NCBI GenBank assembly: GCA_030648035.1
Contig: JAUSII010000116.1
Span: forward strand, 1 to 60,985
From: Deltaproteobacteria bacterium
GTDB lineage: Bacteria > UBA10199 > SPLOWO2-01-44-7
DNA length: 60,985 nucleotides
Direction of reading: 5' to 3'
Part shown: one piece after another, positions 17,434 to 48,927 of the stretch
Layout of the letters: the number at the start of each line of letters is the position of its first letter
How positions within the stretch are numbered: position 1 is the stretch's first letter
Made by a program: the position numbers and the translations under genes
Notes under the pieces: generated by a model
Database searches by the model: none
What the model was told of the DNA's origin: nothing
Seen by the model: only the letters and a program-made list of their open reading frames with translations

Positions 17434-17525
<92 letters not shown>

Positions 17526-32877: not shown

Positions 32878-32883
32878 GGACTC

Positions 32884-32912
32884 ATGCTAGTGGATGTAAA
32901 AATTATTGTCAA
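32884..32912 (-). promoter_or_regulatory. Sigma70 promoter of the TA operon (probably leaderless)
   Basis: TTGACA-N17-TAGCAT, 6 nt before ATG; ATGTAAA repeats nearby could be operators. Confidence 0.6.
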
Positions 32913-32937
32913 TTTAAATGTAAATATTTTTAACATT

Positions 32938-33996
32938 TTAAAGCGTCAGAGACAAAGAAGAGACGACAAAGCCGTCGGGTTTGACCAGAGTGCCGGTGTT
33001 GTTTGTGTAGATCGGATTTTGGGCGTGAAAACCCCGCATTTCGGTTCGCCATAAGAACCCTTTCCAAAGCTGGACATCGACATTGACAGAACCGCCCCAT
33101 GTTTTGAAGCCATCGGAGGTGTTGGTCGCCACAATCACCTGATCGGCGTCCCAATAAAATTCCATGCGACCTGTCATCGAAATCACTTTTGAAAAAGCAT
33201 GACGAAGTTGCACATGTCCTCCATGCCAAAAACTGAACCCATCAACATTCGGCTTGGCTTGCTGGCCAAAGTCGTATTGGGCGGCCACTTGCCAGGTGGA
33301 GGTCAGATTATATTTTGCATAAACATCGTTAAAAAATCGCATCTCCCCCGATTCCTTCCCGATAAAATTATTATAGTTCAGCGAAAAAACATCACTCGGA
33401 GTATACGCGACACTCATTCCGACCGATTTACTGTGATCGAGTGGTGTAATCCTCTGCCAACCATTCATCACGTTCAACTGCACCAGCCAGGGATCGGATA
33501 TTTTGTAACTCATCCGAACACCGAGCTGATAATAGGGTGAAAAATCGCAGGGCATGGAACGGGTGTAAGTCCAGTCATTGCGGGAAATAAAACTTTCCAT
33601 GCCATAGGGTGAAAAATAGATTCCGGTATCGATCCAGAAATCTTTTAACGGCTGAAAGCCGACATAGGATTCCTGCAGAAAACGGACATTTGTATTTTCT
33701 TCTGCGGAATAGTTTCTGTTGACGGCCCTGCCCCCCTGCACCGCCAGACGACCCCTCACAAAATCACTCTCCAGATTCAAATCGGCGTAGGCCAGATTGA
33801 CATTAAAACCATCACGCGCCGGAGTCGTGAGATAAGGGACACTGCCGCCCGGGGGGTTGTCAAAATCGTAGGCATAATATCCATCCACAAAAGCACCCGC
33901 TTTGAGATGTTTGGTAATAGCATGACCTCCCTGATAATACTGCGCCCATGCAGAGTTCTGCGCGCAGAGCAGAAAAAACAAAATCCATTTTTTCAT
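32938..33996 (-). CDS. Outer-membrane beta-barrel porin of the type found with kdp operons
   Basis: Signal peptide; FVDGYYAYDF, G.ESFIS..DWTYTRS...DFSPYYQ.G, NGWQ; follows the kdpE remnant. Confidence 0.8.
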   Translation of the reverse strand: MKKWILFFLLCAQNSAWAQYYQGGHAITKHLKAGAFVDGYYAYDFDNPPGGSVPYLTTPARDGFNVNLAYADLNLESDFVRGRLAVQGGRAVNRNYSAEENTNVRFLQESYVGFQPLKDFWIDTGIYFSPYGMESFISRNDWTYTRSMPCDFSPYYQLGVRMSYKISDPWLVQLNVMNGWQRITPLDHSKSVGMSVAYTPSDVFSLNYNNFIGKESGEMRFFNDVYAKYNLTSTWQVAAQYDFGQQAKPNVDGFSFWHGGHVQLRHAFSKVISMTGRMEFYWDADQVIVATNTSDGFKTWGGSVNVDVQLWKGFLWRTEMRGFHAQNPIYTNNTGTLVKPDGFVVSSLSLTL

Positions 33997-34139
33997 TTTT
34001 TTTCTTCCTTGATGAGAAGCCGGTATCCGACACCCGGCTCTGTCACGATTAATTTTGTCGATTCTTCATCCGGTTCTATTTTTCGGCGCAGGTGTCCCAT
34101 ATAAACTCTCAAATATTGGGTATGCTCCACCGAATTGGG
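33993..34139 (-). pseudogene. kdpE: 3' remnant of the response regulator kdpE
   Basis: PNSVEHTQYLRVYMGHLRRKIEPD....KLIVTEPGVGYRL is the characteristic KdpE winged-helix end. Confidence 0.85.
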
Positions 34140-34210
34140 GGGTGAAGTATGGCGTAGAGCAGATAACCCGCCAAAACAATTGCGATGATTCCGGCCAGAT
34201 AGCAATCCAT
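34137..34210 (-). pseudogene. kdpF: kdpF lacking its last codons
   Basis: AAGGAG RBS; MDCYLAGIIAIVLAGYLLYAILHP matches the KdpF YL.YALL.P pattern. Confidence 0.75.
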
Positions 34211-34267
34211 GGGAAGCTCCTTTACAGAGGAACTTGGAGATGAGGAAGTAAAAATAATGTAAAAATT

Positions 34268-34348
34268 TGGCGGGCCACCGTGGACGACGTTAGAACCAAG
34301 ATTCAACAAACACCAGGGCTGATTTTCATCCCCAAGCTGGCAGCTTAA
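34268..34348 (+). other. Detached C-terminal coding tail of the serine integrase (left att junction)
   Basis: TGG CGG GCC ACC GTG GAC GAC GTT AGA ACC... = WRATVDDVRTKIQQTPGLIFIPKLAA*; shares the W-R codons with integrase ...STWR. Confidence 0.75.
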
Positions 34349-34675
34349 GACTTGGTTACTTTGTTAAGACGGGGCCGCGTAGCGGTCACGTCCGCCGAAG
34401 GCGGCTCTTATTGGCCCGTAGGCCAGTTCGCTGGGATATCGCCACACAGGCCAAATTTTACCCCACCGTGGGGCTCACTATATATTTTTACCGGTGCTTC
34501 TACCGGCGTTTTCAGACACTCGTTATACTTTCTTGCGAACTGTTAAGGATTCCTTGACAGTTGCCTCTGCGAAAATTGACGAGCTCATTTCTGCATTTCT
34601 CTCTATTTCAACATTTTGAACTACCGAGAAATCCTCGGTGGTTGCCTCTACTTTAGCCCCTAGGCAAAATGGCTA

Positions 34676-37096
34676 TCATGATTCTTGGAGCTTCTTTTTT
34701 TGCGTTTCAACGAGCTCATCTTTTATGGGACTATTGGCAAAGATAGTCCCCCAAACTTCATAAATGAATCTATGGATATCACCAATGTTTACCATCGATA
34801 AAATCATGTCATCAGAATCCTGCTTGATTGGTAAGCGATTCAGTTTTTCCCTCACAAAATCGCTCTCCCATTTGATCACCTCCTCATGCAGTTGATCATT
34901 TGATGGCAAGCCCTTGATGTCTTCTACTTTTATACCTTTTGGAAGTTGATCGGGAGTAGGAGGCGGATACTTCTTGCGGTACATTTCCTCAAAAGTGCGA
35001 ATCATGCCAACAATCTTGTTAAATAAAGTCAGCTTATTCTTTTTGAACGCCAATACACCTAGGTAGCAGACACATAACATTATTCTTGGTTCGTCGTAGC
35101 CATACCCTTTACCAGACTTTTCGAGAAAGTCTTTTGCGATAGAAAAGGCTGCATCAATACATTTGTCTGCAAGATCATCCTGAATATCCTGATGCAGAAG
35201 TATCAGTCCCGTCTTTGCTGGCGTTTCAATAATTTCCTCAAAATAAATTGAATGTCTTGCTTGCAATGCATTGTGAATAAACCAGCCAGGAAGATGAATA
35301 TTCCAACTCATACGATTTTTTAATGCATCACTATCGGAGAAATTACCCTTGTTTAATACATCTATGATCATCCTGTTCCAATTGAAAATTAGGATCGATA
35401 CAGCTTGCGCGATGACATTATCGCAATTCTTTATTTGCTCTGTCATTGAACGGAGCACACGATATATCTCCTCAAAAGCTTCAATGATATTTCCTTCATA
35501 GTTTATTTTTTCATCATTGGTCTTCTTTTGATGGATTTGAAACATTAAACCGATAATATTGGTTAGACGACCAAACGTTATATTAACACCGTAATCAATA
35601 TTGAAGTCATCCCCCAATAAACCAGCGAGTTTAGCAACATGCGAACCAACAATAATTGATTGTATCTTTTCCAATATGCCTTTGATTTCCAGATCCCTCA
35701 TTTCGTGTTGAACAACCCTGGTCAAAATATTCAACAGAGAGTCATTGCACTGATTAATGATGAAGGACTTTTGTGCCTGAATGCCATACGCCGCTATATT
35801 GACTAGCTTTTGCTCGATTTGGTGGTATGGCGTTGTTTCCATTTCTTTCGCAATCGACTGGCCCAATTCGTCCAAAATGAAAATCGACTGATAAACCACT
35901 TCCACATCACCATGTCGAATGGCCGAATCGACATACATGCATAAATATCCGATGACTTGGCTGAAAACAGGATTTTGGCAGCTTGTATTTAAAAATTTCG
36001 TGTCTTTTGCAGCGTTTGAGATTGCTTTATACACATGTAGAATTTTTACAGCATTTTGCGTTAGCTGATTTTTCATGAAGTCATCACCAGCTTTATTTAG
36101 TCGGTCCATTATTGAGCCAGTAAAGTTTTGCGTATCATGTTCGAGCGCCAGAGGGGCAAGAGCAGATGGGAGGGCAACGGAATAATTTTTTTTGAGTCCC
36201 ATGAATTTAATCAGTATATTCCCGACGGCCATCATGCCGCTATCAACCGCACCTAATTCATGCCTAGCGGACAATTTCATGGATATTTCTAAAATATTTT
36301 CAACCTGTCGGTTCAGGTCAGCCCATTTTCTTAAAAGAATCTCATTGGAGATTGAAAGACGGACAAGATCTTCATTTTTTTCTTTGCTCATTAACGAAGC
36401 AAATTCAGTGAATCGCATAATCTCAACATTAGTATCTTTAAGGAATGAGGTCGCCTGTTTTTCTAGGAAAGCAAGGGTATGCAAGGGGTTTATCTTTTCT
36501 CTGACCCTTTTAAATTGAACCGCCACCAGAATGAAAAGAAGCATCATTACCACCAAGATTGCACAGATGCTTCCGATCTTTAGGACCCGGAGAGAAGCTT
36601 GGTCATTCCCACTCCAAAGAATCGCGAATGCGAAAAAGGCAACCGTAATAAATACTATACCTACATAAATAAGCCGCTCTTTTATACCATGCGTATATAC
36701 TTCAAAAAATCTTGAGGAATATAGATCTGCAGAATTTTGAAGGGCAAATAGAGACAGAGAAAATATGATAGCTAAAACGCTACCACTCATTGCACCAGCA
36801 CCAATGAACAGATTGGCCATTGCATCATTGGAAATGGCATCAATACCGAAATAGTGGAGCATTAAAGCAGAAAATGCAATTGCGAGAACAATACCTAAAA
36901 TACCTGCGAGCAACTCAAAATATTTGGATAGCCACTGGCCAAATCGTTTATATCTCCCGATATAGGTCAACTTGGTTAAGAGCCAGTCACGGTAAAGAAA
37001 TAAATAAAGAGCAGACTTGAATGAGCGAAGCCGTTGTGCCAATTTAGATAGGCAGATTTTTATTTTTGAAAATATTTTTAACGCCTTTATTCGCAA
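34676..37096 (-). CDS. Large hypothetical membrane protein (about 4 N-terminal TMs, DUF2254-like, plus helical C-terminal region)
   Basis: 806-codon AT-rich ORF; SVLAIIFSLSLFALQ.SADLYSSR pattern; start uncertain. Confidence 0.75.
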   Translation of the reverse strand: MRIKALKIFSKIKICLSKLAQRLRSFKSALYLFLYRDWLLTKLTYIGRYKRFGQWLSKYFELLAGILGIVLAIAFSALMLHYFGIDAISNDAMANLFIGAGAMSGSVLAIIFSLSLFALQNSADLYSSRFFEVYTHGIKERLIYVGIVFITVAFFAFAILWSGNDQASLRVLKIGSICAILVVMMLLFILVAVQFKRVREKINPLHTLAFLEKQATSFLKDTNVEIMRFTEFASLMSKEKNEDLVRLSISNEILLRKWADLNRQVENILEISMKLSARHELGAVDSGMMAVGNILIKFMGLKKNYSVALPSALAPLALEHDTQNFTGSIMDRLNKAGDDFMKNQLTQNAVKILHVYKAISNAAKDTKFLNTSCQNPVFSQVIGYLCMYVDSAIRHGDVEVVYQSIFILDELGQSIAKEMETTPYHQIEQKLVNIAAYGIQAQKSFIINQCNDSLLNILTRVVQHEMRDLEIKGILEKIQSIIVGSHVAKLAGLLGDDFNIDYGVNITFGRLTNIIGLMFQIHQKKTNDEKINYEGNIIEAFEEIYRVLRSMTEQIKNCDNVIAQAVSILIFNWNRMIIDVLNKGNFSDSDALKNRMSWNIHLPGWFIHNALQARHSIYFEEIIETPAKTGLILLHQDIQDDLADKCIDAAFSIAKDFLEKSGKGYGYDEPRIMLCVCYLGVLAFKKNKLTLFNKIVGMIRTFEEMYRKKYPPPTPDQLPKGIKVEDIKGLPSNDQLHEEVIKWESDFVREKLNRLPIKQDSDDMILSMVNIGDIHRFIYEVWGTIFANSPIKDELVETQKKKLQES

Positions 37097-37117
37097 GTAG
37101 TAGTTCCTTCCACGATT

Positions 37118-39517
37118 TCAACTGTTCGTATCCTGTGCCCTCTCATACAAATACCTCTGAAACCCACTAAACACCTGTGCAATCTGTTCGGGCCGACCAA
37201 GATCAGTGATCGCATCAGCAATCGAATCATGATACTTGAGTCGCAACAAGGGAGTGAGTTTGGACTGGTCTAGTTCTTCAACGCCAATTGTCACGTAGTG
37301 GGCGAGAACAAAATTCAGAAAATCTTGTTTTTTATTGTCGAAATTATTCGCAATGGCGACCTTGGCGCGGGTGGCACGTTCTTCACGGGTAAGCGGCTCA
37401 AGGGCAAAAGCCACGTGACTTAAGACATCAAACAAGTCGCTATTTTCGGCATTAATGATCTTTTGCATTTCGGTAAGTTGCTCGGTGCCAAAACCCTTTT
37501 CGGCCAATCCCTCAAGGAGTCGTTTGCGGGTTTCTGGCAGGCTCCACAGTTTTCGAAGTTCCTCTTCGTCTTTGAAAAAATCCGGTAATTTTCCAAAGAG
37601 CATTTCCATGAATTGAGCCGCAGACATGGGAGTACCATCAGGGTGCCAAAAGCTGGTGCACATCATGTGTTGAATGGTACGCGCTTTACCGTCGGCCAGT
37701 TTAATTTTCGCTTTCTTTTTGCAAATACAAGGCCGCATACCACACTTTGGGCAAGGCTCTTTTGGGCATTCACACGGACTTTGAGCACAGATGGCACAAG
37801 GTTGCGGTGGTCTAACTTCGCAAGCGCATGGCTTTTGGCCGCATTTTTTGCATGATCCTTCAGGCTCTGGTTCAATGGGCTCGCCATCCCACTCAGGATC
37901 ACTAAAATGATGATGGGCTTTCACAAAATCATAGATCGTGAAGTAATCTTTGCCATCATAAAGCCTAGTGCCACGACCAATGATTTGCTTAAACTCAATC
38001 ATCGAGTTTATTGGTCGCATCAAAACGATGTTGCGTATATTCCGTGCATCCACACCGGTAGAAAGTTTTTGTGATGTGGTGAGAATGGTGGGGATAGATT
38101 TTTCATTGTCCTGAAAGTCACGCAGGTGTTGCTCGCCAAGCGAACCATCGTGGGCGGTCACACGCTGGCAATAATTTGGATCTTTGCTGGTTTTGATTTG
38201 ATTAATCAGATCGCGAACAGCAAGGGCATGGGCCTGCGTGGCGCAAAAGACGATGGTCTTTTCTTTCTGGTTGATTTGGGACATGAAGATTTCAACCCGT
38301 TTCTTTTCGCGCTCCTTGATTTCGATGATCTTGTTAAAATCTTTTTCTTCGTAGCGTTTGCCCGCTTCAATCTCGCCTTCAATGAGTTGGTCATCGGACG
38401 TGTACACATACTCATCAAGAGTTGTCGCAATTTGCCTCACGCGAAATGGAGTGAGGAACCCGTCATTGATGCCGTCTTTGAGAGAATACACATAAACAGG
38501 CTCACCAAAATAGGCGTAGGTATCCACGTTGTCTTTTCGTTTGGGTGTTGCAGTGAGTCCCAGTTGCACGGCGGGTGCAAAATAATCGAGGATGCTGCGC
38601 CAATTACTTTCATCGTTCGCACCACCTCGATGACATTCGTCAATGACGATGAAATCAAAAAAATCTGGCGGGTACTCACCAAAATATGGTGAAGGATGAC
38701 CATCTTTGGGTGGCCCACTCATGAAGGTCTGAAAAATAGTGAAAAAGATATTGCCGTTTTTTGGAACTTTCCCTTTTTTCTTGATGTCATCAGGGGCAAT
38801 GCGCACCAAAGCATCTTCTGGAAAAGCCGAAAAGGCATTGTAGGCTTGGTCGGCCAGAATATTGCGATCTGCTAAAAATAAAATACGGGGTCTGCGCGTC
38901 GGTTCACCACTCAAATTCCATCGGCTATGAAAAAGCTTCCAGGCAATTTGAAACGCTATAAAGGTTTTACCCGTGCCGGTGGCCAGTGTGAGCAAAACTC
39001 TCGTTTTGTTATCAGCAACGACCTCAAGAACTCGATCAATGGCAGTATCTTGATAATAACGACCTTGAAAAGCACCGCCTTTATCTTCAAAAGGGACTAC
39101 CGCAAAGCGATCACGCCACGCATTCTGCTCGGCAAAAGTTTGGTCCCACAGTTCTTGAGGGGTAGGAAATGTACTGACTTCATCTTCACCGCCTAACTTC
39201 ATGTCGATCGCATAAATACCTTGGCCGTTGGTGGCATAAGTGAAGCGGATGGCAAGTTTTGCTGCGTAGTCCTTGGCTTGGCCAACACCTTCGGTCAATT
39301 CTTGATCCCAAGCCTTGGCCTCCACAACAGCCAGTTTGGTATTACGATAAATCAAAACATAATCGGCAGTGAGCGCTTTGCCACGTTTGCCTTGGCCTTC
39401 AAGCCGCCCAAGTGTGATTGGGTATTCGCGACGAATGCGACTACCTTCCACAACACCCCAACCAGCGGCGGCAAGAGCAGGGTCAATATGTTCAGCTCTG
39501 GTTTCGGCTTCGTTCAT
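37118..39517 (-). CDS. hsdR: Type I restriction subunit R, EcoEI/EcoAI-like
   Basis: MNEAETRAEHIDP, ADYVL..VVEAK, ATGTGKT, DECHRG, TATP, QIIGRGTR. Confidence 0.96.
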   Translation of the reverse strand: MNEAETRAEHIDPALAAAGWGVVEGSRIRREYPITLGRLEGQGKRGKALTADYVLIYRNTKLAVVEAKAWDQELTEGVGQAKDYAAKLAIRFTYATNGQGIYAIDMKLGGEDEVSTFPTPQELWDQTFAEQNAWRDRFAVVPFEDKGGAFQGRYYQDTAIDRVLEVVADNKTRVLLTLATGTGKTFIAFQIAWKLFHSRWNLSGEPTRRPRILFLADRNILADQAYNAFSAFPEDALVRIAPDDIKKKGKVPKNGNIFFTIFQTFMSGPPKDGHPSPYFGEYPPDFFDFIVIDECHRGGANDESNWRSILDYFAPAVQLGLTATPKRKDNVDTYAYFGEPVYVYSLKDGINDGFLTPFRVRQIATTLDEYVYTSDDQLIEGEIEAGKRYEEKDFNKIIEIKEREKKRVEIFMSQINQKEKTIVFCATQAHALAVRDLINQIKTSKDPNYCQRVTAHDGSLGEQHLRDFQDNEKSIPTILTTSQKLSTGVDARNIRNIVLMRPINSMIEFKQIIGRGTRLYDGKDYFTIYDFVKAHHHFSDPEWDGEPIEPEPEGSCKKCGQKPCACEVRPPQPCAICAQSPCECPKEPCPKCGMRPCICKKKAKIKLADGKARTIQHMMCTSFWHPDGTPMSAAQFMEMLFGKLPDFFKDEEELRKLWSLPETRKRLLEGLAEKGFGTEQLTEMQKIINAENSDLFDVLSHVAFALEPLTREERATRAKVAIANNFDNKKQDFLNFVLAHYVTIGVEELDQSKLTPLLRLKYHDSIADAITDLGRPEQIAQVFSGFQRYLYERAQDTNS

Positions 39518-40554
39518 GATTTATCCTTTTTAATAGGGGCAATCTCTGGGAGTTCCTTGATGTGGCGATCAAAGTCGGACTCAAAAAGTTGATCCTGCAC
39601 GATGCGATATTTTTCAAACTCACTATCCGCATGTTCTTTAGCGATATCAGCACTGATACGCCCCTTGTCGTGCAAGATGGCCTGTTCATCAAATTCCAGA
39701 AACTGGTCGAGGCGCTTCGCCCAATCTTCCATGCTCATGGGAATTTTTCTTCTGGCACGATTTTCTGCCAAATCGAGATAAGCGTTCACAATTCTGCCGA
39801 GAGATTCCAGCTCATCTTTGGTGAGGTAATTTTTGGCAATGCTCACATCCGGTTTGATGATTTTTCCATCGGGAGCCGCCTCCCACGTGGTTAAACCCAT
39901 GTTGGGCTTGGCGCTGTCTGCGCGATTTTTGATGAGCTCTGCGGCAGTGCGACCATGAATCGCGTAGTGCAGTTTGTTTTGCACTTTGGCAAAAAAATCC
40001 CGAGTGGTGGGAGCGTCTTTGTTGTAATCAATGCTGGTAGCGTAGATGTCAGTAACTTTTTGATAAAACCGTCGCTCGCTAAGGCGGATCTCGCGAATCT
40101 CGGCCAGCAGCCGCTCATAATATTCCTCGCCAAGAAAAGTACCGTTTTCGAGTCGCTTGTTATCGAGTACATAACCCTTGATGGCAAACTCCCGCAAAAC
40201 CCGCGTGGCCCATTGGCGAAACTGCGTGGCTCGTACAGAATTCACTCGGTACCCAACCGAGATGATGGCATCGAGGTTGTAAAAATTGGTATTGTAATTT
40301 TTACCATCGGCAGCAGTTGTTAGGAATTTCCGAATAACTGACTTTTCATCTAACTCTTTGGATTCAAATGTGTTTTTAAGATGTTCGTTGATGGTTGGAA
40401 TGGTCACATCAAATAGCTCCGCCATGAGTTTTTGGGTGAGCCAGATGGTCTCGTTTTCATAGCGGACTTCAATGCCGTTCTCACCAGCTTGGCTTGTAAA
40501 AATCAAAAACTCAGCGGTGCTGTTGCGAATTTGAAGTTTGGTTTCTTTTTTCAT
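39514..40554 (-). CDS. RhuM-family protein
   Basis: ETIWLTQKLMAELF, YNLDAIISVGYRVNS, IREIRLSERRFYQK, VQNKLHYA. Confidence 0.93.
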   Translation of the reverse strand: MKKETKLQIRNSTAEFLIFTSQAGENGIEVRYENETIWLTQKLMAELFDVTIPTINEHLKNTFESKELDEKSVIRKFLTTAADGKNYNTNFYNLDAIISVGYRVNSVRATQFRQWATRVLREFAIKGYVLDNKRLENGTFLGEEYYERLLAEIREIRLSERRFYQKVTDIYATSIDYNKDAPTTRDFFAKVQNKLHYAIHGRTAAELIKNRADSAKPNMGLTTWEAAPDGKIIKPDVSIAKNYLTKDELESLGRIVNAYLDLAENRARRKIPMSMEDWAKRLDQFLEFDEQAILHDKGRISADIAKEHADSEFEKYRIVQDQLFESDFDRHIKELPEIAPIKKDKS

Positions 40555-40556
40555 GG

Positions 40557-41750
40557 TTAAAGCTCCCCGCTAAAAGCTTGGTGCAGGATGGATTTTTTGA
40601 GTTCATCGAGGGCTGCGAGTTTTTGTTGGTAGAGGGATGAGAGGCGTTGGGTTTCCGGTTCGAAAGCACGAAGCTTCTTAACCAATGCGGCTTGCTCCTC
40701 AAGATTCACAGGCACTGGAATCGTGAAGTTGACCAGTGTTTTGATTGGTAACTGTGGTTGCGCTGCCCCAGTTGTTTGCTTTCTTATCTGGTCCTTCACA
40801 ATTTTCGACCTGAACATCTCAAAAAGAAACGAGGGCAATAAGACACGCTTGTTCGGGCGAAAAATTAACATCCCTGAATTGATGCGAATATTGTCGAATG
40901 GAACATCCTCAGAGTAGATACCGATATTCCCAATTGTTCCCCTTGTTGTAAGAACAACATCATCTCGCTTCAGTTTCCCCTTCCGAAGCATGCGGTCTTT
41001 TTCTTCCGAGATGAACATTTTGGACTCAAATTCGAATCCGTCAGGTCGCACGTTCTTTGTATTCATGAAGAGGCAGTAACCCTCCTCTTGGAAATCTGAG
41101 CCATTCGGATAATTCACGCCCCGGTCGCCATCAATAATTTCTAGCAGGGTTTCGTCGCCAAGCTGCCGATCCACCCACCCCGGGCCGCGTTGGCTGAAGA
41201 CGGACCGGAGATGGCTTTCGAAGAGGGCGCGTGCGTTTTGGAGATTCTTTTCCGCATTGGCTTTGGCGGTGGCGATGGCTTCAAAGGCTTTGTCGAGAAC
41301 GGCAACGATGCGGTGTTGTTCGGGGAGGGGTGGGAGGGAGATTTTTATATTCTCAATTTGAGTTTTGTTTATTGAAGAAAAAACAGCTCCTTCATTTCCA
41401 ACAATTTCAGATTCGTTATAAACAAGAAATTGAAAAAGATATTCTGAACTAACGCCACTTGATGGTCTGATGGCAGCTAATCCACGACCAATACAGATTT
41501 TTTGAGTTGAAAAATTAACAGGCCCTACAGGTGCACGTACCGACATCAGAACGTCACCAGCCTCTGCTTCTTTGGTTACATCAGTCGTCCATGTCGTTGG
41601 TTGTCCAATAAACTTCTCAGTAAATTCTTTTTTACCCTGATAAAAAGGCAAGCCTTTAGCCTCGTTGTTATAAAATTTACCTTCAGGAGATTGGCCCGCA
41701 ATAACAGTGCATACATCTCCAAGTTTTTCGGTTTGCCAATTCTTGTTCAT
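40557..41750 (-). CDS. hsdS: Type I RM specificity subunit S
   Basis: PPLPEQHRIVAVLD, two TRDs, LKKSILHQAFSGEL. Confidence 0.95.
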   Translation of the reverse strand: MNKNWQTEKLGDVCTVIAGQSPEGKFYNNEAKGLPFYQGKKEFTEKFIGQPTTWTTDVTKEAEAGDVLMSVRAPVGPVNFSTQKICIGRGLAAIRPSSGVSSEYLFQFLVYNESEIVGNEGAVFSSINKTQIENIKISLPPLPEQHRIVAVLDKAFEAIATAKANAEKNLQNARALFESHLRSVFSQRGPGWVDRQLGDETLLEIIDGDRGVNYPNGSDFQEEGYCLFMNTKNVRPDGFEFESKMFISEEKDRMLRKGKLKRDDVVLTTRGTIGNIGIYSEDVPFDNIRINSGMLIFRPNKRVLLPSFLFEMFRSKIVKDQIRKQTTGAAQPQLPIKTLVNFTIPVPVNLEEQAALVKKLRAFEPETQRLSSLYQQKLAALDELKKSILHQAFSGEL

Positions 41751-42439
41751 GCGCCACCACTCTGGTTTTGATGAGCAATAATACTGGCCTCAACGTCTGA
41801 AACCACTTTAATAATTTTTTCAAAACATTCCTTTAAAAATGGCAAGACAACTAAATTGCTCGGCAATCCAGGTACGTTGTGATTATCAAAACAGAAACTT
41901 ACCCAGGTGATTTTTTCAGTTTTTAAGATGTTATTTGGTACGGGCAATTGAGTCCTTGGATTAATCGGGACACCCATCACACTCACATTGCCATGAAATG
42001 TGACACCACTGGTCCAGCTAACACCTCCCCCTTGGGGATGACTTACTCGTGTTTCAACTGACTCTGTTCGCTTTTGCGGAATCGGGGTTACATGTTTTAG
42101 CTCATTATTTAATTTGTTAAACCACTCCATCCATTTTTGATCGTTGAATGGTTGCCATTTTTTGATCGAGTTTTTTACTAGGGCAGGCAAATCAGTCGAA
42201 CGCTTTTCAAAATCTGCCTCTTGATCGCAAATTGGAAAGTTGTGATTTGAGATTTTCTTTCTCAAATAATCCAATGCTGATCTTAAGTTGCCAAGATAGT
42301 CCTTAATTTCAACAAGAAGATCTGCTCCAATTTTTGTTTCCCTCAGCGATTTTTTATAGCCATCTTCGATGACTATCAATGAAGATTCAGCCTTTTTTAG
42401 AACTGCATTCACGTCGTCAAATTGCGAGATTCTAGTCAC
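41747..42439 (-). CDS. Hypothetical protein inserted between hsdM and hsdS
   Basis: 230-codon AT-rich ORF overlapping both neighbours by 4 nt; NLRSALDY and LNN..KH motifs. Confidence 0.75.
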   Translation of the reverse strand: MTRISQFDDVNAVLKKAESSLIVIEDGYKKSLRETKIGADLLVEIKDYLGNLRSALDYLRKKISNHNFPICDQEADFEKRSTDLPALVKNSIKKWQPFNDQKWMEWFNKLNNELKHVTPIPQKRTESVETRVSHPQGGGVSWTSGVTFHGNVSVMGVPINPRTQLPVPNNILKTEKITWVSFCFDNHNVPGLPSNLVVLPFLKECFEKIIKVVSDVEASIIAHQNQSGGA

Positions 42440-43884
42440 AACAACCCCCCAATGACTTGCAGAACTTCCGCACTCTCCACATCCAACCCCGCAATCTCCT
42501 CCATAATCTCCTGTGGCGTCCGATGCTTTACCTCTTCTCCCCTATTTGGATTTTTTACCGACAAATCAAAAGTCGTTGGATCGACATTGGCAATATCCAC
42601 ACTCCAACTCTTGGGCGAATCGGCAAATGGCTTTTGCAGCTCAATAAACTCTTTGAGGTCGTCATCATTCAGCGGATTGGTCTTGCCCATGTTGCGACCG
42701 GGATCGAGCTGATAAAACCAAGTTTTTCGTGTGGGCGAACCTTTTTCAAAAAACAACACAACAGTTTTAACTCCCGCACCCAAAAACGTGCCGCCCGGGC
42801 AATCAAGCACCGTATGCAGGTTGCAACTTTCCAAAAGTAGTTTACGTAAGCTCACCGAGGCGTTGTCGGTATTGGATAAAAATGTATTTTTGATGACCAC
42901 ACCACCACGACCACCGGCTTTGAGCATTTTGATAAAGTGCTGCAAAAATAAAAAAGCCGTTTCACCGGTGCGGATGGGAAAGTTTTGCTGCACCTCTTTG
43001 CGTTCTTTGCCACCAAATGGGGGATTAGCCAGCACCACGTCATAACGGTCCTTCTCTTGAATGTCGGTAAGGTTTTCGGTGAGCGTATTGGTGTGGATGA
43101 TGTTTGGCGCCTCAATACCGTGCAGAATCATGTTCATGATGGCGATCACGTAGGCTAGTTTATCTTTTTCTTTGCCGTAGAGAGTTTTTTCTTGCAGTTT
43201 CTTGGCTTCGCCGGTGGTGAGGTTTGGTTTTGATTTTAAAAACTCAAAGGCCTCGCAAAGAAAACCTGCTGAACCAACTGCACCGTCGTAAATACGTTCG
43301 CCGATTTGAGGTTGAACAACCTGCACAATCGCACGGATGAGCGCACGCGGCGTGTAATAGGAACCGCCATCACGTCCGGCATTACCCATGTTGCCGATTT
43401 TTTCTTCAAAGAGATAACTCAGCTCGTGTTTTTCTTTTTGCGTACCGAAGCGAAGCCCGTCGATAGTTTCGACAATCTCACGCAAGTTGTAACCACTGTT
43501 GATCTCATTTTTTGTCTCTGTGAAAATTTCACCAATCTTGTATTCGATGGTGTTTGGTCCGGTTGCCCGCTGTTTAAAACCGTGAAGATACGGAAAGAGC
43601 TTTTGATTAACAAAGTCACGCAGGTCATCGCCCGTGAGCGCCACGTTGTGGTCAAAATTACCGTTTTTGTCCTTGGGTGCCGCCCAGCTTGCCCAGCGAT
43701 AGGGTTTGTCGAGAATGTAGGTGTATTTTTTCCCTTCAAGAGCAGCTTCTGTGGCCTTGTCTTGCTCCAGACCATCGAGATACTTTAAAAAGAGCAGCCA
43801 CGCGGTTTGCTCGGTGTATTTAAGAACGCCTCCACCTTCTCTACGAAGGACGTCATCGATATTTTTAAAAGCTTGTTCAAACAT
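42436..43884 (-). CDS. hsdM: Type I RM methyltransferase subunit M
   Basis: YYTPR, DGAVGSAGF, NPPF. Confidence 0.96.
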   Translation of the reverse strand: MFEQAFKNIDDVLRREGGGVLKYTEQTAWLLFLKYLDGLEQDKATEAALEGKKYTYILDKPYRWASWAAPKDKNGNFDHNVALTGDDLRDFVNQKLFPYLHGFKQRATGPNTIEYKIGEIFTETKNEINSGYNLREIVETIDGLRFGTQKEKHELSYLFEEKIGNMGNAGRDGGSYYTPRALIRAIVQVVQPQIGERIYDGAVGSAGFLCEAFEFLKSKPNLTTGEAKKLQEKTLYGKEKDKLAYVIAIMNMILHGIEAPNIIHTNTLTENLTDIQEKDRYDVVLANPPFGGKERKEVQQNFPIRTGETAFLFLQHFIKMLKAGGRGGVVIKNTFLSNTDNASVSLRKLLLESCNLHTVLDCPGGTFLGAGVKTVVLFFEKGSPTRKTWFYQLDPGRNMGKTNPLNDDDLKEFIELQKPFADSPKSWSVDIANVDPTTFDLSVKNPNRGEEVKHRTPQEIMEEIAGLDVESAEVLQVIGGLL

Positions 43885-43906
43885 TATTTTGTTTCCTCAA
43901 AAATTC

Positions 43907-44101
43907 TTACTTCTTTGACGACTGCACCACCTGCTTGAGCAACGCTTCCAAATCTTTTTTCTTGTAAAGCCGATACCCGTTCACAGGGTTGCGGTGGGTT
44001 TTGATCTTGCCGGATTTTTCCCAGTTGCGAAGCGTGCCGGTGGAGACACCCAAAAATTTAGCGGCTTCTCGGACCATGATGTAGTTTTGTAGGTTTTCCA
44101 T
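43907..44101 (-). CDS. MerR-like HTH regulator/excisionase
   Basis: VREAAKFLGVSTGTLRNWEKSG...NGYRLY. Confidence 0.88.
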   Translation of the reverse strand: MENLQNYIMVREAAKFLGVSTGTLRNWEKSGKIKTHRNPVNGYRLYKKKDLEALLKQVVQSSKK

Positions 44102-44260
44102 AAATATTTTAAGTAGATAGAATAAAAAGAGCCCGTAGTCAAAGATTAATAAAGATTACAATTTTGCGTTTTCAGATCTGAAAACGCTCTCACTTTTCAT
44201 CCATCCCGTAATCCCTGTCACAAAGGCGATGCATGCCCCCCGACAAATGGGAAAAACGTG

Positions 44261-44575
44261 ATGAAAATTTCTGAAATAAACATTCAACTCATCAAACCTG
44301 CAAACGGGCTCGTGGCCTTTGCGAGTGTCGTACTCGATAACCAAATTTATTTGGGCTCAATTGGCGTGCACGAAAAACTCGATGGTAACGGTTATCGCCT
44401 CACCTATCCCACAAAGAAAACCGGTAATCGTGATTTTCACATTTTTCATCCCATTGAACGCAACCTTGGTCAGCAAATTGAACAGGCGATTCTGAGCAAG
44501 GTCACAACACTTTTGGAAAAGCAGAATGCTGGCGACTCAGCGGTTTTCAGAAAGGATGGCGATGCCATCGACTGA
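44261..44575 (+). CDS. SpoVG-family protein
   Basis: MKISEINI...GLVAFASVVLD...I.V......L.YPT...FHPI. Confidence 0.8.
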   Translation: MKISEINIQLIKPANGLVAFASVVLDNQIYLGSIGVHEKLDGNGYRLTYPTKKTGNRDFHIFHPIERNLGQQIEQAILSKVTTLLEKQNAGDSAVFRKDGDAID

Positions 44576-44765
44576 ACAGATCAAACAGTTTCAGGGTTTG
44601 TATGAACGGCGCTTTGGGCGGCAGATCAGCGAGCAACAGGCCTATGACATGGGGATGAAGCTTGTGACCTTGGTCCAACTCACTTGCGCCACGCAGGTGA
44701 AGACCCAACAAAAACGTAATGAAGGGAACCAACATGACAAAGAAACAAATCCAGACGGACTTTAA
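44562..44765 (+). CDS. Small hypothetical protein
   Basis: EQIKQFQGLYERRFGRQISEQQA...KLV.LV; overlaps both neighbours. Confidence 0.6.
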   Translation: MPSTEQIKQFQGLYERRFGRQISEQQAYDMGMKLVTLVQLTCATQVKTQQKRNEGNQHDKETNPDGL

Positions 44766-45972
44766 ACACATTGGCGTGAAAGATCTCAGCGACGTCTTGG
44801 GCATTACCATCAAGAAAGACGAAGCGAACAAGGTGGTGACGTTTTTATGCCAGCTCTCCGCGTACACCGAAAATGCTCAATTTAACGTCAGCTATAATGC
44901 GCCGTCCTCCACCGGTAAAAGTTACATACCCACCGAAATTGCGAGCCTGTTCCCCAAAGAAGATGTGATGGAACTTGCCTACTGCAGCCCCACGGCGTTC
45001 TTTCACGATGTGGGCAAATACGACAAGGCGTTCAACGGTTATAAAATCGATCTCTCTCGAAAGATTCTCATTTTCTTGGATCAGCCGCACAACGATTTGC
45101 TCGCTCGTCTACGGCCTTTGCTTTCTCATGATCGCAAGGAGATCAATCTCAAGATCACCGACAAGTCGCAGAAAATGGGATTGCGAACAAAAAATATTTT
45201 GATTCGCGGATATCCCTCTGTGATTTTTTGCACAGCGGGCCTTCACATTGATGAGCAGGAAGCTACGCGCTTTTTACTGTTAAGCCCCGAAGTCAATCAG
45301 GAGAAAATTCGTGCCAGCATCATGGCCTCGATTCAAAAAGAATCCGACCGCGATTTGTACAATGAATCGTTGGAAAACAATCTTCCGCGCATGCAGTTTG
45401 CCGAACGCATTCGCGCCATCAGGGATGAAAATATTCAGGAGATCAAGATTGGTTTTCAGGCGGAAGTGGAACACCGTTTTTTTGAAAGACGTACCGTTCT
45501 CAAGCCACGTCATCAGCGCGACATAAAACGTATCACCTCACTCATCAAATGCTTTGCTCTGCTGAACCTCTGGTGGCGTGATCGTAATGGTTCAACGATC
45601 ACAGCCAATCAAGAAGACATCGCCGAAGCCTTTTGCATTTGGGAACGCATTGGCGTGAGTCAGGAATTGAATCTGCCACCCTACATTTACAATCTTTACA
45701 CCGAAGTCATTCTGGCGTCCTGGCAAGATAAGGCGAACGCTGGTCGCAAAAGTGGGCTCACCCGTAATGACATCGCAAAGAAATATTACGAGGTCTTTGA
45801 ACAAATGTTGGACGTGACCAAGTTCCGCCAGCAGATCTTGCCCATGCTGGAAACGGCGGGGCTGGTTTATCAGGAAGCGGATCTGAACGACAAACGCAAG
45901 GTTCTGGTTTTCCCAAACCCTACACATGCTGGCACCGTTCAAAATAATATAGTGAGCGTAGGGGTGGGGTAA
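44734..45972 (+). CDS. P-loop/AAA+ ATPase, putative replication helicase of the element
   Basis: APSSTGKS Walker A, ILIFLDQ Walker B, TRF, PRHQRD, winged-helix-like end. Confidence 0.7.
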   Translation: MTKKQIQTDFKHIGVKDLSDVLGITIKKDEANKVVTFLCQLSAYTENAQFNVSYNAPSSTGKSYIPTEIASLFPKEDVMELAYCSPTAFFHDVGKYDKAFNGYKIDLSRKILIFLDQPHNDLLARLRPLLSHDRKEINLKITDKSQKMGLRTKNILIRGYPSVIFCTAGLHIDEQEATRFLLLSPEVNQEKIRASIMASIQKESDRDLYNESLENNLPRMQFAERIRAIRDENIQEIKIGFQAEVEHRFFERRTVLKPRHQRDIKRITSLIKCFALLNLWWRDRNGSTITANQEDIAEAFCIWERIGVSQELNLPPYIYNLYTEVILASWQDKANAGRKSGLTRNDIAKKYYEVFEQMLDVTKFRQQILPMLETAGLVYQEADLNDKRKVLVFPNPTHAGTVQNNIVSVGVG

Positions 45973-46054
45973 AAATCATTAAGGACAAATTGGCGTGATA
46001 TTTTAAGCCCAAGTTTGACAGTAAATCACTGACAATGGCTGAAATAACTCTCTA

Positions 46055-46672
46055 ATGATTTCGGCAAAGGTGGAAAAGTCAATGTTTGCAAATGAACCAA
46101 AAACCGAGACAGATCATGTGACGCGGCTCTCAATTACCGATCTCACCAAGCGTGGAATTTTGGATGGAATGTTGCCGTGCACACTGCGCTGGCAAAATAA
46201 TATCCTTGGCACCGAACAGAAAGTGGATGTTGCGGTCTGCCGAAAAGGGGGAAAGCAAGTTTGCGAACTGAGCTATGAGTTGGGTGCCCCCACGAAAGGA
46301 AAAAATTTCCACCAGTGCAAAGTATCAATCACCACAACCCCATGTCATTATGGCGGAACGCGCCGTTGGTTTCTTTGCCCGATGAAGAAAGAAGGTGTTT
46401 TGTGCAAAAAGCGCGTTGCCATCCTCTACTTGAAAGATGCCTTGTTTGGTTGCCGCCATTGCCATGAATTGACCTACAGCTCGCAGAATAAAAATCATCG
46501 AAAGCCTGCCAATATTTTGATGGAGAATTTAGAAGATCTACTGGAGATGCAAGCGCTGCAACGCGAAATCAAAATCCGCTTGTACAAGGGAAAAACAACA
46601 AAAAAATACCGACAATTCGAAGCGTTAGCGAAGCGATATCTGGACAGAACCTGCTTTACTAGTGAGGGATAG
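46055..46672 (+). CDS. Hypothetical Zn-finger protein
   Basis: TPCHYGGTRRWFLCP...C..RVAILY....FGCRHCHELTYSSQ. Confidence 0.78.
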   Translation: MISAKVEKSMFANEPKTETDHVTRLSITDLTKRGILDGMLPCTLRWQNNILGTEQKVDVAVCRKGGKQVCELSYELGAPTKGKNFHQCKVSITTTPCHYGGTRRWFLCPMKKEGVLCKKRVAILYLKDALFGCRHCHELTYSSQNKNHRKPANILMENLEDLLEMQALQREIKIRLYKGKTTKKYRQFEALAKRYLDRTCFTSEG

Positions 46673-46692
46673 AATTTTAATGTGGAGGTGAC

Positions 46693-48417
46693 ATGCAAAG
46701 ACCCGAGAAACTGCGTTATATCCTGTATGCCCGTAAATCTTCCGAGAGCGAGGATCGTCAGGTTCAATCCATTGATGATCAAATCAATCGCCTTCAAAAA
46801 CTCGCCAGTGATTTGAAGCTGAATGTTGTCGATATTCTCATCGAAGCAAAATCCGCCAAAAAACCGTATAGCCGCCCGATCTTTATGAAGATGATTCAAC
46901 GGATCGAAGCTGGCGAAGCCGATGGCATCCTCGCCTGGCAGTTGAATCGTCTGTCGCGAAATCCAGTCGACAGCGGAACCTTGGGTTGGTTCTTACAGCA
47001 GGGAACTCTTCAATCGATCCAAACAACTGAACGCGAATACCTTCCCGATGATAACGTGCTCTTGTTTAGTGTCGAAAGCGGCATGGCCAATCAATACATT
47101 TTGGAACTGCGAAAAAACGTCAAACGTGGCGTGGATAGCAAGCTGGCCAAGGGCTGGAAGCCGAACGTGGCTTCGCTGGGATATCTCAATGAAAAAGAAG
47201 ACAAGACGATCATCGAGGATCCAGAACGTTTTCCTTTGGTTCGCAAAATGTGGGACTTGATGCTGACAGGGGCAAAGTCACCTCCACAAATCCTGGAGGT
47301 TGCCAATAACGAGTGGGGTTTCAGGACCAGAAAAACCAAAAGACTTGGCGGTAAAGAATTATCACGTAGTGGGATCTATCGAATTTTCACCAACCCATTT
47401 TATGCTGGTATCATCAGCTACGGTGGCAAGGAGTACGACGGCAAACACAAAGCCATGATCACGCTTTCAGAATTTGATCGCGTGCAATACCTGTTAGGCC
47501 GCAAGGGGAAAGCACGTCCTAAAACACATACCTTTGCTTTTACAGGTTTGATTCGCTGTGGGGAATGCGGCTGCGTGTACACAGCGGAAACCAAACGAAA
47601 GCTGATTAAATGTAATGGCGAAGTCAAAGAATACACCTATTACCACTGCACGCGAAAACGAACGGATTACGATTGCTCACAAAAGAAGGTGATGCGCGAT
47701 GATGTTTTGAACCAGCTCATCGCCGATGAAATCGAAAAGTTTACCATCCTCCCTGAATTTAGAGATTGGGCCTTGGATGTTTTGAAGGAGCAAAATTCAA
47801 AAGAAGTGACTGATAGAAATCAGATTTTTGAATCGCAAACGAGGGCATTGGCACAGGCCCATGATAAACTGGATCGTCTGGTTGATATGCGCCTGAATGA
47901 TCTACTGTCGAATGCGGAATATGTTCAAAAAAAGTCGCAACTGGAAAAAGAAATTCAAGAGTTAAGAAACCAAGCAAAAGAAACTGAGGAGCGTATCGAC
48001 AACTGGCTGGAACTGACCGAAAAGGTCTTCGACTTCGCCACACACGCCCACACGGCCTTCCTGAATGGCGATCTCGAAACCAAGAAGCAAATCTTGATGG
48101 CACTGGGTTCGAACCCAACCCTCAAAGACGGTAAACTCGCTATAGAAGCGAGTCCTTGGCTGGTCCCCATCGAAAAGGCCTATCCTTCCCTCGAAGCCGC
48201 CTACCAAGGGTTAGAACCAGCACAAGTGCCCGAAAATAAAGAACGGATGGCTCAATTACAAGCCATCCGTTCCACTTGGCGGAGAGGGTGGGATTCGAAC
48301 CCACGAGACCTTTCGGTCTACACGCTTTCCAAGCGTGCCGGTTCAGCCGCTTTCGTACCTCTCCAAACTTCATTTATTAAATTTTCAATGTTCTTTCCTG
48401 CAAACGAATTGTTTTAA
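46693..48417 (+). CDS. Large serine recombinase; reads through tRNA-Ser antisense in the integrated state
   Basis: YARKSSE catalytic Ser, NRLSRN, recombinase domain, CGECG..YYHC Zn ribbon, coiled coil; WRRGWDSNPR is antisense tRNA. Confidence 0.95.
   Translation: MQRPEKLRYILYARKSSESEDRQVQSIDDQINRLQKLASDLKLNVVDILIEAKSAKKPYSRPIFMKMIQRIEAGEADGILAWQLNRLSRNPVDSGTLGWFLQQGTLQSIQTTEREYLPDDNVLLFSVESGMANQYILELRKNVKRGVDSKLAKGWKPNVASLGYLNEKEDKTIIEDPERFPLVRKMWDLMLTGAKSPPQILEVANNEWGFRTRKTKRLGGKELSRSGIYRIFTNPFYAGIISYGGKEYDGKHKAMITLSEFDRVQYLLGRKGKARPKTHTFAFTGLIRCGECGCVYTAETKRKLIKCNGEVKEYTYYHCTRKRTDYDCSQKKVMRDDVLNQLIADEIEKFTILPEFRDWALDVLKEQNSKEVTDRNQIFESQTRALAQAHDKLDRLVDMRLNDLLSNAEYVQKKSQLEKEIQELRNQAKETEERIDNWLELTEKVFDFATHAHTAFLNGDLETKKQILMALGSNPTLKDGKLAIEASPWLVPIEKAYPSLEAAYQGLEPAQVPENKERMAQLQAIRSTWRRGWDSNPRDLSVYTLSKRAGSAAFVPLQTSFIKFSMFFPANELF
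48233..48272 (-). terminator. Terminator for tRNA-Ser(GGA) embedded in the integrase CDS
   Basis: Perfect 12-bp stem GAACGGATGGCT/AGCCATCCGTTC followed by TTTATTTT on the minus strand, 4 nt past CCA. Confidence 0.75.
48277..48364 (-). tRNA. tRNA-Ser(GGA)
   Basis: GGAGAGG acceptor, CACGC-TT-GGA-AA-GCGTG anticodon arm, long variable arm, GGTTCGAATCC, CCA. Confidence 0.97.
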
Positions 48418-48865
48418 AAAACTCCCGCATCTGCGAAGAACAGGTGTCGTGCAGAATGCCCGGCACCACTTCGATGCGATGATTCAACCGCTCATCGCGC
48501 GAAAAATCGTAGAGGGAACCGCAGGCGCCGAACTTCGGTTCGAAACAGCCGAACACCAGACGCGGCACTCTCGATTGCATGAGCGCCCCCATGCACATGA
48601 TGCACGGCTCGCAGGTGACATAGATCGTGACATCATTCAAACGCCAACTGCCGTGCTCACGGCTCAATTGTTTGATCAGCAATAATTCGGCATGACCCAG
48701 CGGATCCTGGTTTGCCTCGCGGATATTGTGCGCCTTGGCGATAATCTCGTTTTCGGCCACGGCCACCGCCCCAACCGGGACTTCGCCCTGAATGGCGCCA
48801 AAGCTCGCCTCTTCCAGCGCCTCGCCCATCCAGAATTCATGCATGGCTTGTGTCTCTTTTTGCAT
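48377..48865 (-). CDS. tadA: tRNA adenosine deaminase TadA
   Basis: GEVPVGAV, HAE, TCEPCIMC, RLNH. Confidence 0.95.
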   Translation of the reverse strand: MQKETQAMHEFWMGEALEEASFGAIQGEVPVGAVAVAENEIIAKAHNIREANQDPLGHAELLLIKQLSREHGSWRLNDVTIYVTCEPCIMCMGALMQSRVPRLVFGCFEPKFGACGSLYDFSRDERLNHRIEVVPGILHDTCSSQMREFFKTIRLQERTLKI

Positions 48866-48927
48866 GGGGCCTCTTCTGTCACGACTCCCTTGCCAAGACA
48901 ACAGAAAATTTGCTACAGGCTCAAGGC

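Follow-up and report, generated by a model that had tools for sequence, protein, structure and literature searches.

Where is the C-terminus of an integrase encoded if the recombination site that the enzyme uses lies within its own gene? The question is raised by a 14-kb island at the CCA end of a tRNA-Ser(GGA) gene in a deltaproteobacterial contig (JAUSII010000116.1), at positions 34274-48282 of a 60,985-nt stretch that is referred to here as the window; the genome that was searched along with it comprises 2.39 Mb. An initial annotation of the window had proposed that the large serine integrase of this island is split by its own attachment site (attP) and exchanges its C-terminus upon integration and excision. 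At the level of sequence, this structural interpretation was confirmed and generalised to a family of related integrases.

The integrase gene and its displaced 3' end

In the integrated state, the integrase open reading frame (ORF; 46693-48417, + strand) encodes 574 amino acids (aa), with 530 codons supplied by the element (46693-48282) and a tail supplied by the host (48283-48414). The sequence agrees with the frame described initially: the junction reads ...AIRSTWR followed by RGWDSNPRDLSVY..., and translation continues through the antisense strand of tRNA-Ser into the end of the flanking host gene tadA (48377-48901, - strand; Pfam MafB19-deam, 5.2e-35, and dCMP_cyt_deam_1, 1.1e-25), with the last 41 nt of the ORF overlapping the tadA 3' end. 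The 44 host-encoded residues, opening with RGWDSNPR, are unselected junk.

By catalytic motif, domains, and fold, the window protein is a large serine integrase. It was matched by the Pfam profiles Resolvase (5e-17, residues 10-154), Recombinase (7.5e-09), and Zn_ribbon_recom (3.9e-11) and, in a phmmer comparison with PDB sequences, by 4kis (1.4e-12) and 9dxh (2.3e-06). The Arg-x-Ser nucleophile motif is present, with R14, K15, and S16 invariant in 33 sequences, and R14-x-S16 follows the same pattern as R8/S10 of Bxb1 and R10/S12 of phiC31 (PMC12884075). The AlphaFold2 model of a homologue, P0051 (41-row alignment; mean predicted local distance difference test score [pLDDT] of 78.8), has long helices at residues 355-402 and 408-459 after the zinc-ribbon strands, and Foldseek aligned it with the integrases of SPbeta (9y66, 3.8e-21), phiC31 (9tep, 2.1e-13), Bxb1 (9iu2, 5.5e-13), and LI (4kis, 3.1e-12).

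The common core TTGGCGG was found at both ends of the island, as initially annotated, in attL (34267-34273, + strand) and in attR (48276-48282, + strand). In attR, its TGG is the codon of Trp529 (48277-48279) and at the same time the antisense of the tRNA CCA; in attL, its TGG (34268-34270) is the host antisense CCA. Since 24 copies of this 7-mer occur in the window (12.2 expected), the core alone is worthless as evidence, and the specificity of the left end comes from the tail encoded there. Positions 34268-34348 translate to WRATVDDVRTKIQQTPGLIFIPKLAA and a stop, and the 24 codons past the core (34274-34345), which read ATVDDVRTKIQQTPGLIFIPKLAA and are closed by TAA (34274-34348, + strand), represent the stored C-terminus of the integrase and the P' arm of attP. 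Joining the island ends at the core would give the 554-aa integrase that had been anticipated, as codon 530 ends at 48282 and 530 + 24 = 554.

The origin of these 24 codons was examined among related integrases. With the 530-aa element-encoded part as query, 6294 relatives were obtained at E ≤ 0.001 among 8000 candidates scored, and the best 120 are 58-94% identical to the window integrase. In GTDB genomes, 398 stretches encode relatives, and the genome-locus counts given below refer to the best 80 of these 398. A hidden Markov model (HMM) profile of the tail was built from 13 tails, with the window's own among the seeds. It produced a single match in the window, at 34268 (E 4.2e-12), and a single match in the whole genome (E 6.5e-12), which was again the window tail; the genome holds only one member of the family. 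In six-frame translations of 80 loci and the window, 23 matches were found at E < 1e-5, all on the integrase strand (best minus-strand match, E 0.02), spread over 18 loci with distal tails, locus L050 with a contiguous tail, and the window. With a regular expression, far-end tails were located upstream of the integrase and on the same strand in 11 of the 64 loci with at least 1.5 kb of upstream sequence. The expectation that homologues share a VDDVRT-type tail was borne out by its occurrence as a contiguous end of the integrase in 11 of the 120 best homologues, in L050, and in at least 7 of 80 metagenome loci.

A coincidence of the 7-bp repeat with an open 24-codon frame, with the island ending elsewhere, would draw on the abundance of TTGGCGG in the window (24 occurrences), and is so improbable as to be negligible. 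It is opposed by the single, correctly stranded match of the tail HMM (E 4.2e-12), by the exact register in which TGG equals the antisense CCA, and by the presence of the motif GTTAGAAC, described below, at its family position; the tail profile, the genome-wide single match, and the position of GTTAGAAC refute it. By profile comparison, the 24 far-end codons are the native C-terminus of the integrase, which places the predicted attP inside the integrase gene.

The layout recurs throughout the family. The 120 best homologues end in an antisense-tRNA-like sequence (W-x3-4-DSN...; 70 proteins), in a stop within 4 residues of the Trp (30), in a non-tRNA tail like that at the far end in the window (11), or otherwise (9). 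In 62 of the 80 genome loci, ARAGORN called an opposite-strand tRNA whose 3' end falls exactly on the T that opens the conserved Trp codon; its encoded CCA is thus read in antisense as TGG. All 62 have the same offset, and the window is in the same register. The tRNA kinds at 66 loci were Gln (15), Asn (15), His (11), Trp (10), Ser (8), Asp (3), Met (2), Lys (1), and Glu (1), including 4 loci with a tRNA nearby at which the integrase alignment ended short of the Trp. The remaining 14 of 80 loci had no tRNA under default settings, and the intron option of ARAGORN added calls in the same register at L036, L038, and L045. Relatives were also met at more than 560 metagenome loci; of the 80 analysed, 49 showed the same tRNA junction. 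The attP-spanning layout is family-wide, and the family is very large and barely described.

Several further observations concern the tRNA junctions and the stored tails. The tRNAs called with the intron option at L036, L038, L045, and L075 contain introns of 199-276 nt at the junction, and an antisense-encoded peptide, ..GYTYP.VS.RGGLYH.., is common to many homologues; taken together, these suggest a conserved insert in tRNA genes of the candidate phyla radiation. Two stored tails were found upstream of one integrase in L024 (434 and 1215), L079 (500 and 3092), and L086 (2339 and 2420), probably representing stacked or decayed elements at one tRNA. At L018:5678, L024:437, L058:902, L089:2580, and L088:3226, the attL tail is not preceded by TGG; host tRNA genes without an encoded CCA are a possible source, in which case the Trp codon of the integrase would supply the CCA. 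In the window, the tail with 50 nt downstream (34279-34397) is covered at ≥90% identity by contigs of runs X2, X3, and X5 (5 differences in 119 nt in one contig piece), and the adjacent cargo (34653-37407) is uncovered in these runs; the tail segment appears to travel with the integrase module and not with the cargo. A terminator-like hairpin at 34392-34404 (+ strand; 5 G-C pairs, tail CTCTTATTGG), 44 nt past the stop of the tail, would end integrase transcription in the circular form; it is weak, with 2 such sites found versus 1.9 expected. No Rfam match at E up to 1 was obtained for the left end (33900-34800), and residues 500-565 of P0051 retrieved only themselves from 5.8 billion proteins, the region being too short for that database.

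Crossover, target recognition, and free forms

The position of strand exchange was approached through the att sites of related loci. A block extending from TGG to +6 or +7 is common to attL and attR, and the +5/+6 dinucleotide is identical in 15 of 17 attL/attR pairs, the two exceptions being tails that may be orphans. The sequence GTGNACG occurs 8-14 bp from the +5/+6 centre on the P arm (77 integrase genes) as well as on the P' arm (15 tails). Because of the +5/+6 sharing and of the GTGNACG dyad around that centre, the predicted crossover most likely lies at the GG of 48281-48282 and 34272-34273, which corresponds to tRNA positions 71-72.

The initial annotation had stated that circularisation restores the tRNA, which is wrong; the tRNA-Ser(GGA) gene (48277-48364, - strand; ARAGORN; Rfam, 47 bits), which was the B' arm of attB before insertion, is whole with the island in place. 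It was never interrupted by the island, since the crossover falls within its terminal bases, for which the element brings the same sequence. Its discriminator base and CCA are now element-supplied. The gene adjoins tadA in the family relatives G001 and G002 as well.

The P' arm contains a near-invariant motif, GTTAGAAC (34289-34296, + strand), at +22 to +29 from the T of TGG, which is a candidate for the binding motif of the zinc-ribbon domain. In 15 tails, it reaches up to 2.0 bits even at third codon positions (AGA); Arg is encoded by AGA in 14 of the 15 and Val by GTT likewise in 14, a pattern of DNA-level constraint on GTTAGAAC. Measured from the centre, TTAGAAC (34290-34296 in the window) lies at 18-24 bp in P' and TTCGAAC (48294-48300), the sequence of the tRNA T-arm, at 13-19 bp in B'. 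In the B' arms of 63 tRNA junctions, the T-arm antisense ATTCGAAC (48293-48300 in the window tRNA) is exactly 5 bp nearer the centre than GTTAGAAC is in P'. The zinc-ribbon motif of LI integrase is likewise 5 bp closer to the centre in attB than in attP, at bp 11-19 compared to bp 16-24 (Rutherford et al. 2013, PMC3783163), a spacing that the window family appears to share. We infer that, in attB, the universal T-arm takes the role of the zinc-ribbon-domain motif for these enzymes, which would explain the use of at least 9 tRNA kinds by the family.

On the antisense strand within the last codons of the integrase, 3 nt past the tRNA CCA, an intrinsic-terminator-like hairpin of 15 pairs with a loop of 4 is followed by TTATTTTCGG (48230-48273, - strand). 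Its stem is by far the longest among five terminator-like sites in 46000-49000 (15 pairs versus 5-6), and the hairpin recurs in the same register across the family. In 77 family sequences, 78.4% of the cells of a 10-pair stem were paired versus 66.9% after shuffling, double-change cells numbered 89 versus 34.4, and neither value was reached in 500 shuffles (0/500 each). Compensatory changes were seen at 8 of the 10 pairs, and slid controls paired at 33-53%. Judged by these alignments, the element's own predicted terminator hairpin now sits behind tRNA-Ser(GGA). Hairpins were also noted by eye in several attL host flanks, where they look like displaced native terminators.

Candidates for free or undivided forms came from the related loci. 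A terminal overlap of 88 nt (10,383-bp unit) was found on contig L187, which has no tRNA; the 563-aa integrase encoded across its contig origin finishes with the native tail that is also present on contig L144. L187 is best read as a circular form, excised or episomal, which a tandem array could mimic. The nine contigs with contiguous native tails that were tested had no terminal overlap (0/9), and L187 is alone in this among the 80 metagenome loci. Two other loci carry contiguous native tails in chromosomal surroundings: L050 (10001-11680 of a 636-kb contig; tail ending ..TLQAA) has no tRNA within 10 kb, and L198 (tail ending ..SKAA) similarly lies inside a large chromosomal contig. Each may be a chromosomal copy in the attP form or belong to a tandem array. 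The best identity to the window integrase was at most 41% in viral_contigs and at most 26% in phage and plasmid records.

Function of the native tail and comparison with known systems

The conserved part of the tail is the internal VDDVRT..YIYIPDL and not the terminus. The codons of ..(G)YIYIPDL.. carry about 0.6-1.4 bits at positions 1-2 versus 0.17-0.76 bits at position 3, and the proline of the block is written with four different codons. With its amino acids preserved despite variable third codon positions, ..YIYIPDL is under protein-level selection, and the tail is therefore probably functional. The block lies 49-69 nt from TGG, beyond the approximately 24 bp contacted in LI attP half-sites. 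In the P0051 model, helix 517-547 runs through Trp530 with a pLDDT of 81-84 and is followed by a less confident segment; by this model, the junction lies inside a long helix, which integration would halve.

The explanation that we favor as a whole, and regard as probable, is the following. A large serine integrase would have placed the island at the 3' tip of tRNA-Ser(GGA), with the coding sequence up to Trp529 as P arm, with a P' arm that encodes the last 24 residues, and with the crossover two bases past TGG, at GG. Insertion would move the 24 codons 14 kb away to attL and let the gene run into antisense tRNA and tadA, and excision as a circle would rejoin the gene and yield a 554-aa enzyme with the native tail. 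The tRNA gene itself would be used as an attB half-site, with the T-arm in the place of the zinc-ribbon motif, and the terminator hairpin of the element, antisense of the last integrase codons, would be put behind the tRNA. By analogy with the IntP and IntX forms of the phage Mx8 integrase, the free form would depend on the native tail to be fully active or properly regulated, and the integrated isoform would be an altered enzyme, probably weaker or differently regulated.

Several points weigh against this explanation. Neither the circle joint (48282 to 34274) nor the empty-site joint (34273 to 48283) was found in the assembled contigs of four runs (X1, the probable source, and X2, X3, and X5) over 33000-49500, an absence that is evidence neither way as assembled contigs drop rare forms; the short-sided joints in these contigs were 34637 to 40334 and 43884 to 48280, with sides of 24-26 nt. 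No exact empty site was found among the 41 genomes examined, which included no genome of the same genus. The hairpin statistics rest on related sequences and codon-constrained columns, and the 6-of-7 match between TTAGAAC and the T-arm may be fortuitous, with a chance of roughly 3% over about 20 offsets according to a rough estimate. Part of the tail conservation (VRT, written GTT AGA AC) reflects DNA-level and not protein constraint. The integrated tails range from 2 to >90 residues and are not conserved, and elements whose excision required the native tail would have no way out.

The left flank matched 4 of the 41 genomes, namely, G000 itself and three others in which the matching pieces were short. 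G002 was considered as an empty site; it has tadA, a tRNA-Ser(GGA) with the same 3' end, and a cold-shock gene 1.2 kb downstream, the window counterpart of which lies 2.6 kb left of attL. It was rejected, showing loose synteny only.

The overlap of gene and site could also be a structural by-product of no regulatory meaning, with a fixed P' arm that must follow TGG for the CCA/T-arm geometry to be targeted, an ORF that happens to run through it, and enzymes that behave alike in both states. This reading, to which we give tentative weight, accounts for the fixation of GTTAGAAC even at synonymous positions, by which the VRT residues are dictated by DNA, for integrated tails that are unselected and of any length, and for the many integrated copies that keep intact 529-codon bodies; a "trivial explanation" is also listed for a comparable gene, dsiB, in the available excerpts of McMurdie et al. 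2011 (PMC3146451). It does not account for the YIYIPDL block, which lies at 49-69 nt from TGG, past the ~24 bp of LI contacts, and which, with its variable third positions and four Pro codons, indicates protein-level selection, nor for a junction inside a confidently modelled helix. A bolder reading, possible but doubtful, goes beyond the probable explanation in treating the tRNA gene as a universal landing pad and the tail as a reversible covalent activity switch, the counterpart of Mx8 IntP/IntX among serine recombinases, in a very large and essentially undescribed family. Under it, the encoded CCA would double as the conserved Trp codon of the enzyme, a few base changes beside TGG would retarget the enzyme among at least 9 tRNA kinds, and the last codons would be read as protein, att arm, and antisense terminator at once.

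The initial annotation had further suggested that the two isoforms differ in activity or stability, the excised tail ending in LAA like an ssrA-type degron, and act as a built-in directionality switch. In a proteolytic version of this idea, ClpXP would remove the excised isoform and the integrated isoform would be stable. The window tail indeed ends in KLAA, the host has clpX (649.9 bits), and the last 4 residues of the P0051 model, which ends in LIAA, have a pLDDT below 50. An AA ending occurs in 4 of the 34 listed tails (window, L050, P0013, and P0051; one tail is counted twice in this set and two are identical) versus an estimated 0.2 expected, and the L198 tail ends in AA too. C-terminal degrons have reportedly been described on mycobacteriophage integrases and repressors. 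The host transfer-messenger RNA (G000:C124:14022-14375) was detected by Rfam (130.4 bits) and missed by ARAGORN, and its frame, read by eye and tentatively, ends in ..GNENLQMAA*. Against a family principle, 30 of the 34 tails have no AA end, the exact LAA is confined to this element, and the family conserves the internal VDDVRT..YIYIPDL and not the terminus. As the switch, proteolysis is unlikely; from its tail sequence, a degron is plausible for the window element and unlikely as a general family rule.

An integrated copy could instead be a dead end, with the tail-less enzyme inactive ("suicidal") and the island immobile short of help in trans from another copy. There is precedent among SSV-family tyrosine integrases (PMC7253208), no circle was seen in the assembled contigs, and the integrase is the sole family member in its genome. 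We hold this outcome to be improbable: the 24 of 554 codons that are displaced leave all catalytic and DNA-binding domains in place, and the tail is intact, as are the two cores and an excisionase-like gene. The altered Mx8 integrase is not inactivated, according to a review passage (PMC6070905), and integrases 94% and 89% identical to that of the window are present in other assemblies, so the lineage moves. In the SSV-type archaeal integrases, recombination likewise takes place within the integrase coding sequence, which is divided when the element enters a tRNA gene, but into two substantial, inactive parts (PMC7253208), compared to the last 24 of 554 codons displaced in the window.

The probable explanation finds a parallel in the myxophage Mx8, whose target is a tDNA. 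Its attP lies inside the int coding sequence, and integration gives int a new 3' end by which the enzyme is changed and not destroyed (Tojo 1996 and Magrini 1999, via passages of PMC4383910 and PMC6070905). IntP/IntX and the window integrase share an attP in the int ORF, a hybrid gene at one end, and a displaced 3' end at the other, and the same layout was seen in the 18 related loci with distal tails. Mx8 Int is a tyrosine recombinase, whereas the window enzyme is a serine recombinase, and chemistry, att-site size, and directionality control differ; the likeness is one of layout and not of class membership. Moreover, Mx8 is a phage with a measured functional consequence, and the window element is a cargo island known here from sequence.

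A second parallel is DsiB, a serine recombinase of ~540 aa from the ssrA-specific genomic islands of Dehalococcoides (McMurdie et al. 2011, PMC3146451). In the available excerpts of that paper, the dsiB 3' end always overlaps attL with the stop codon outside the island, in ssrA or a neighbouring island, and the authors ask whether dsiB is fully functional only on the circle. As described there, DsiB is a CcrB-like large serine recombinase encoded at the island edge at the 3' end of a tRNA-like gene, as is the window integrase, but it uses ssrA and a longer direct repeat, compared to tRNA-Ser and a 7-bp core here. The DsiB module further includes a small serine recombinase (DsiA), ParB, Mom, and a RecF-like protein, none of which was found in domain scans of the island, and a conserved native tail, the TGG = CCA register, and att half-site motifs are not identified in those excerpts. 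The likeness of the window integrase to DsiB is drawn from layout.

Among large serine integrases, Listeria A118/LI, SPbeta SprA, phiC31, and Bxb1 have the same domain order, fold, short att sites, and central dinucleotide as the window family. To our knowledge, none of their attP sites lies inside the integrase coding end. Their targets are protein-coding or intergenic and not tRNA tips. Serine recombinases at tRNA genes are represented by the filamentous phage phiRSM1 and by Mycobacterium actinomycete integrative and conjugative elements at tRNA-Leu in the excerpts of PMC3816273 and PMC3218068; such integration is called "rare" in the latter and "not known" in the excerpt of Islander (2015). 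The 13-nt phiRSM1 core, TGGCGGAGAGGGT, begins with TGGCGG, as does the window core past its first T. As far as those excerpts go, phiRSM Int is of the small resolvase/invertase type without recombinase and zinc-ribbon domains, and its attP lies between two ORFs. Among tycheposons, 27 of 937 elements have a large serine recombinase. In the literature searched, no paper on this family, on the TGG = CCA register, or on the T-arm motif was found, and the tycheposon, TIGER, and Islander tables may list serine integrases at tRNAs. The attP-in-gene layout is of a known kind; no description of the register, the conserved tail, the T-arm reading, or the embedded terminator turned up in that literature.

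Unidirectional DNA insertion relies mainly on serine integrases as tools, the control of their directionality is an active structural question, and a C-terminus rewritten by the enzyme's own reaction offers a natural test of what the sequence past the coiled coil does. Recognition of tRNA geometry (CCA tip and T-arm), if true, would explain target switching and offer ready-made landing sites in almost any bacterium. For annotation, database "recombinase family proteins" ending in ...DSNPR... would be junction artefacts, and short orphan ORFs beside islands would be stored integrase tails.

Cargo genes and island flanks

In this genome, the analysis precisely delimits a 14-kb defence island. 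Its gene content was compared by tblastn with the 80 related loci. Upstream of the integrase lie a SpoVG-like gene (44258-44575, + strand), orf79 (44526-44765, + strand; 33 of 80 loci), orf417 (44719-45972, + strand; 24 of 80 loci, 64-84% identity in the 8 best matches), and orf205 (46055-46672, + strand; 33 of 80 loci). The product of orf417 is a possible replication protein; an Atlas search linked it with PF27228 and primase-fused proteins (TM 0.93-0.94), which is a lead only. Because orf79, orf417, and orf205 recur among these loci and cargo genes are almost never common to them, the island appears to consist of a conserved integrase-proximal module and variable defence cargo.

The cargo includes a type I restriction-modification operon (37118-43884, - strand; Pfam and PADLOC) with hsdM (42436-43884, - strand; MTase_I, 2.1e-154), a gene for a 230-aa protein of unknown function (41747-42439, - strand), hsdS (40557-41750, - strand; Specificity_I, 2.3e-98), a RhuM-family gene (39514-40554, - strand), and hsdR (37118-39517, - strand; REase_I, 6.6e-140); PADLOC PDC-S05 (1e-157) was also matched in the operon. 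Between it and attL, an 806-aa protein (34676-37096, - strand) had no match in Pfam, PADLOC, PHROGs, or NCBIfam and no relative in the 80 related loci. On the other side of the operon, a 64-aa MerR/HTH_17 protein (43907-44101, - strand; Pfam MerR, 4.8e-12, and HTH_17, 1.1e-10; best PHROG match excisionase, 6e-08) has weak relatives in 8 of the 80 loci. This excisionase-like protein is a candidate directionality factor or regulator.

A second tRNA-Ser gene in the window (cga; 17435-17525, - strand) has neither a family integrase nor a stored tail beside it. On the left flank, a cold-shock gene (31504-31716) is separated from attL by a segment (31776-33996, - strand) with a gene for a 112-aa protein of unknown function, an HTH_3 and SocA/Panacea antitoxin-type gene (32098-32877), and a BBP2 porin gene (32938-33996). 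In G002, the cold-shock gene is only 1.2 kb from the tRNA. The 31776-33996 segment may be older DNA accreted at the same tRNA hotspot. A 70-aa ORF (33993-34205, - strand) abuts attL, and its last 41 residues resemble the terminal part alone of Trans_reg_C (positions 37-77 of the 77-position profile, E 4.5e-9). Its hydrophobic N-terminus, which we take to be KdpF-like, and the stretch ..YLRVYMGHLRRKIE.., presumably resembling the end of KdpE, make it look like the scar of a deleted kdp operon in which kdpF is joined to the end of kdpE.

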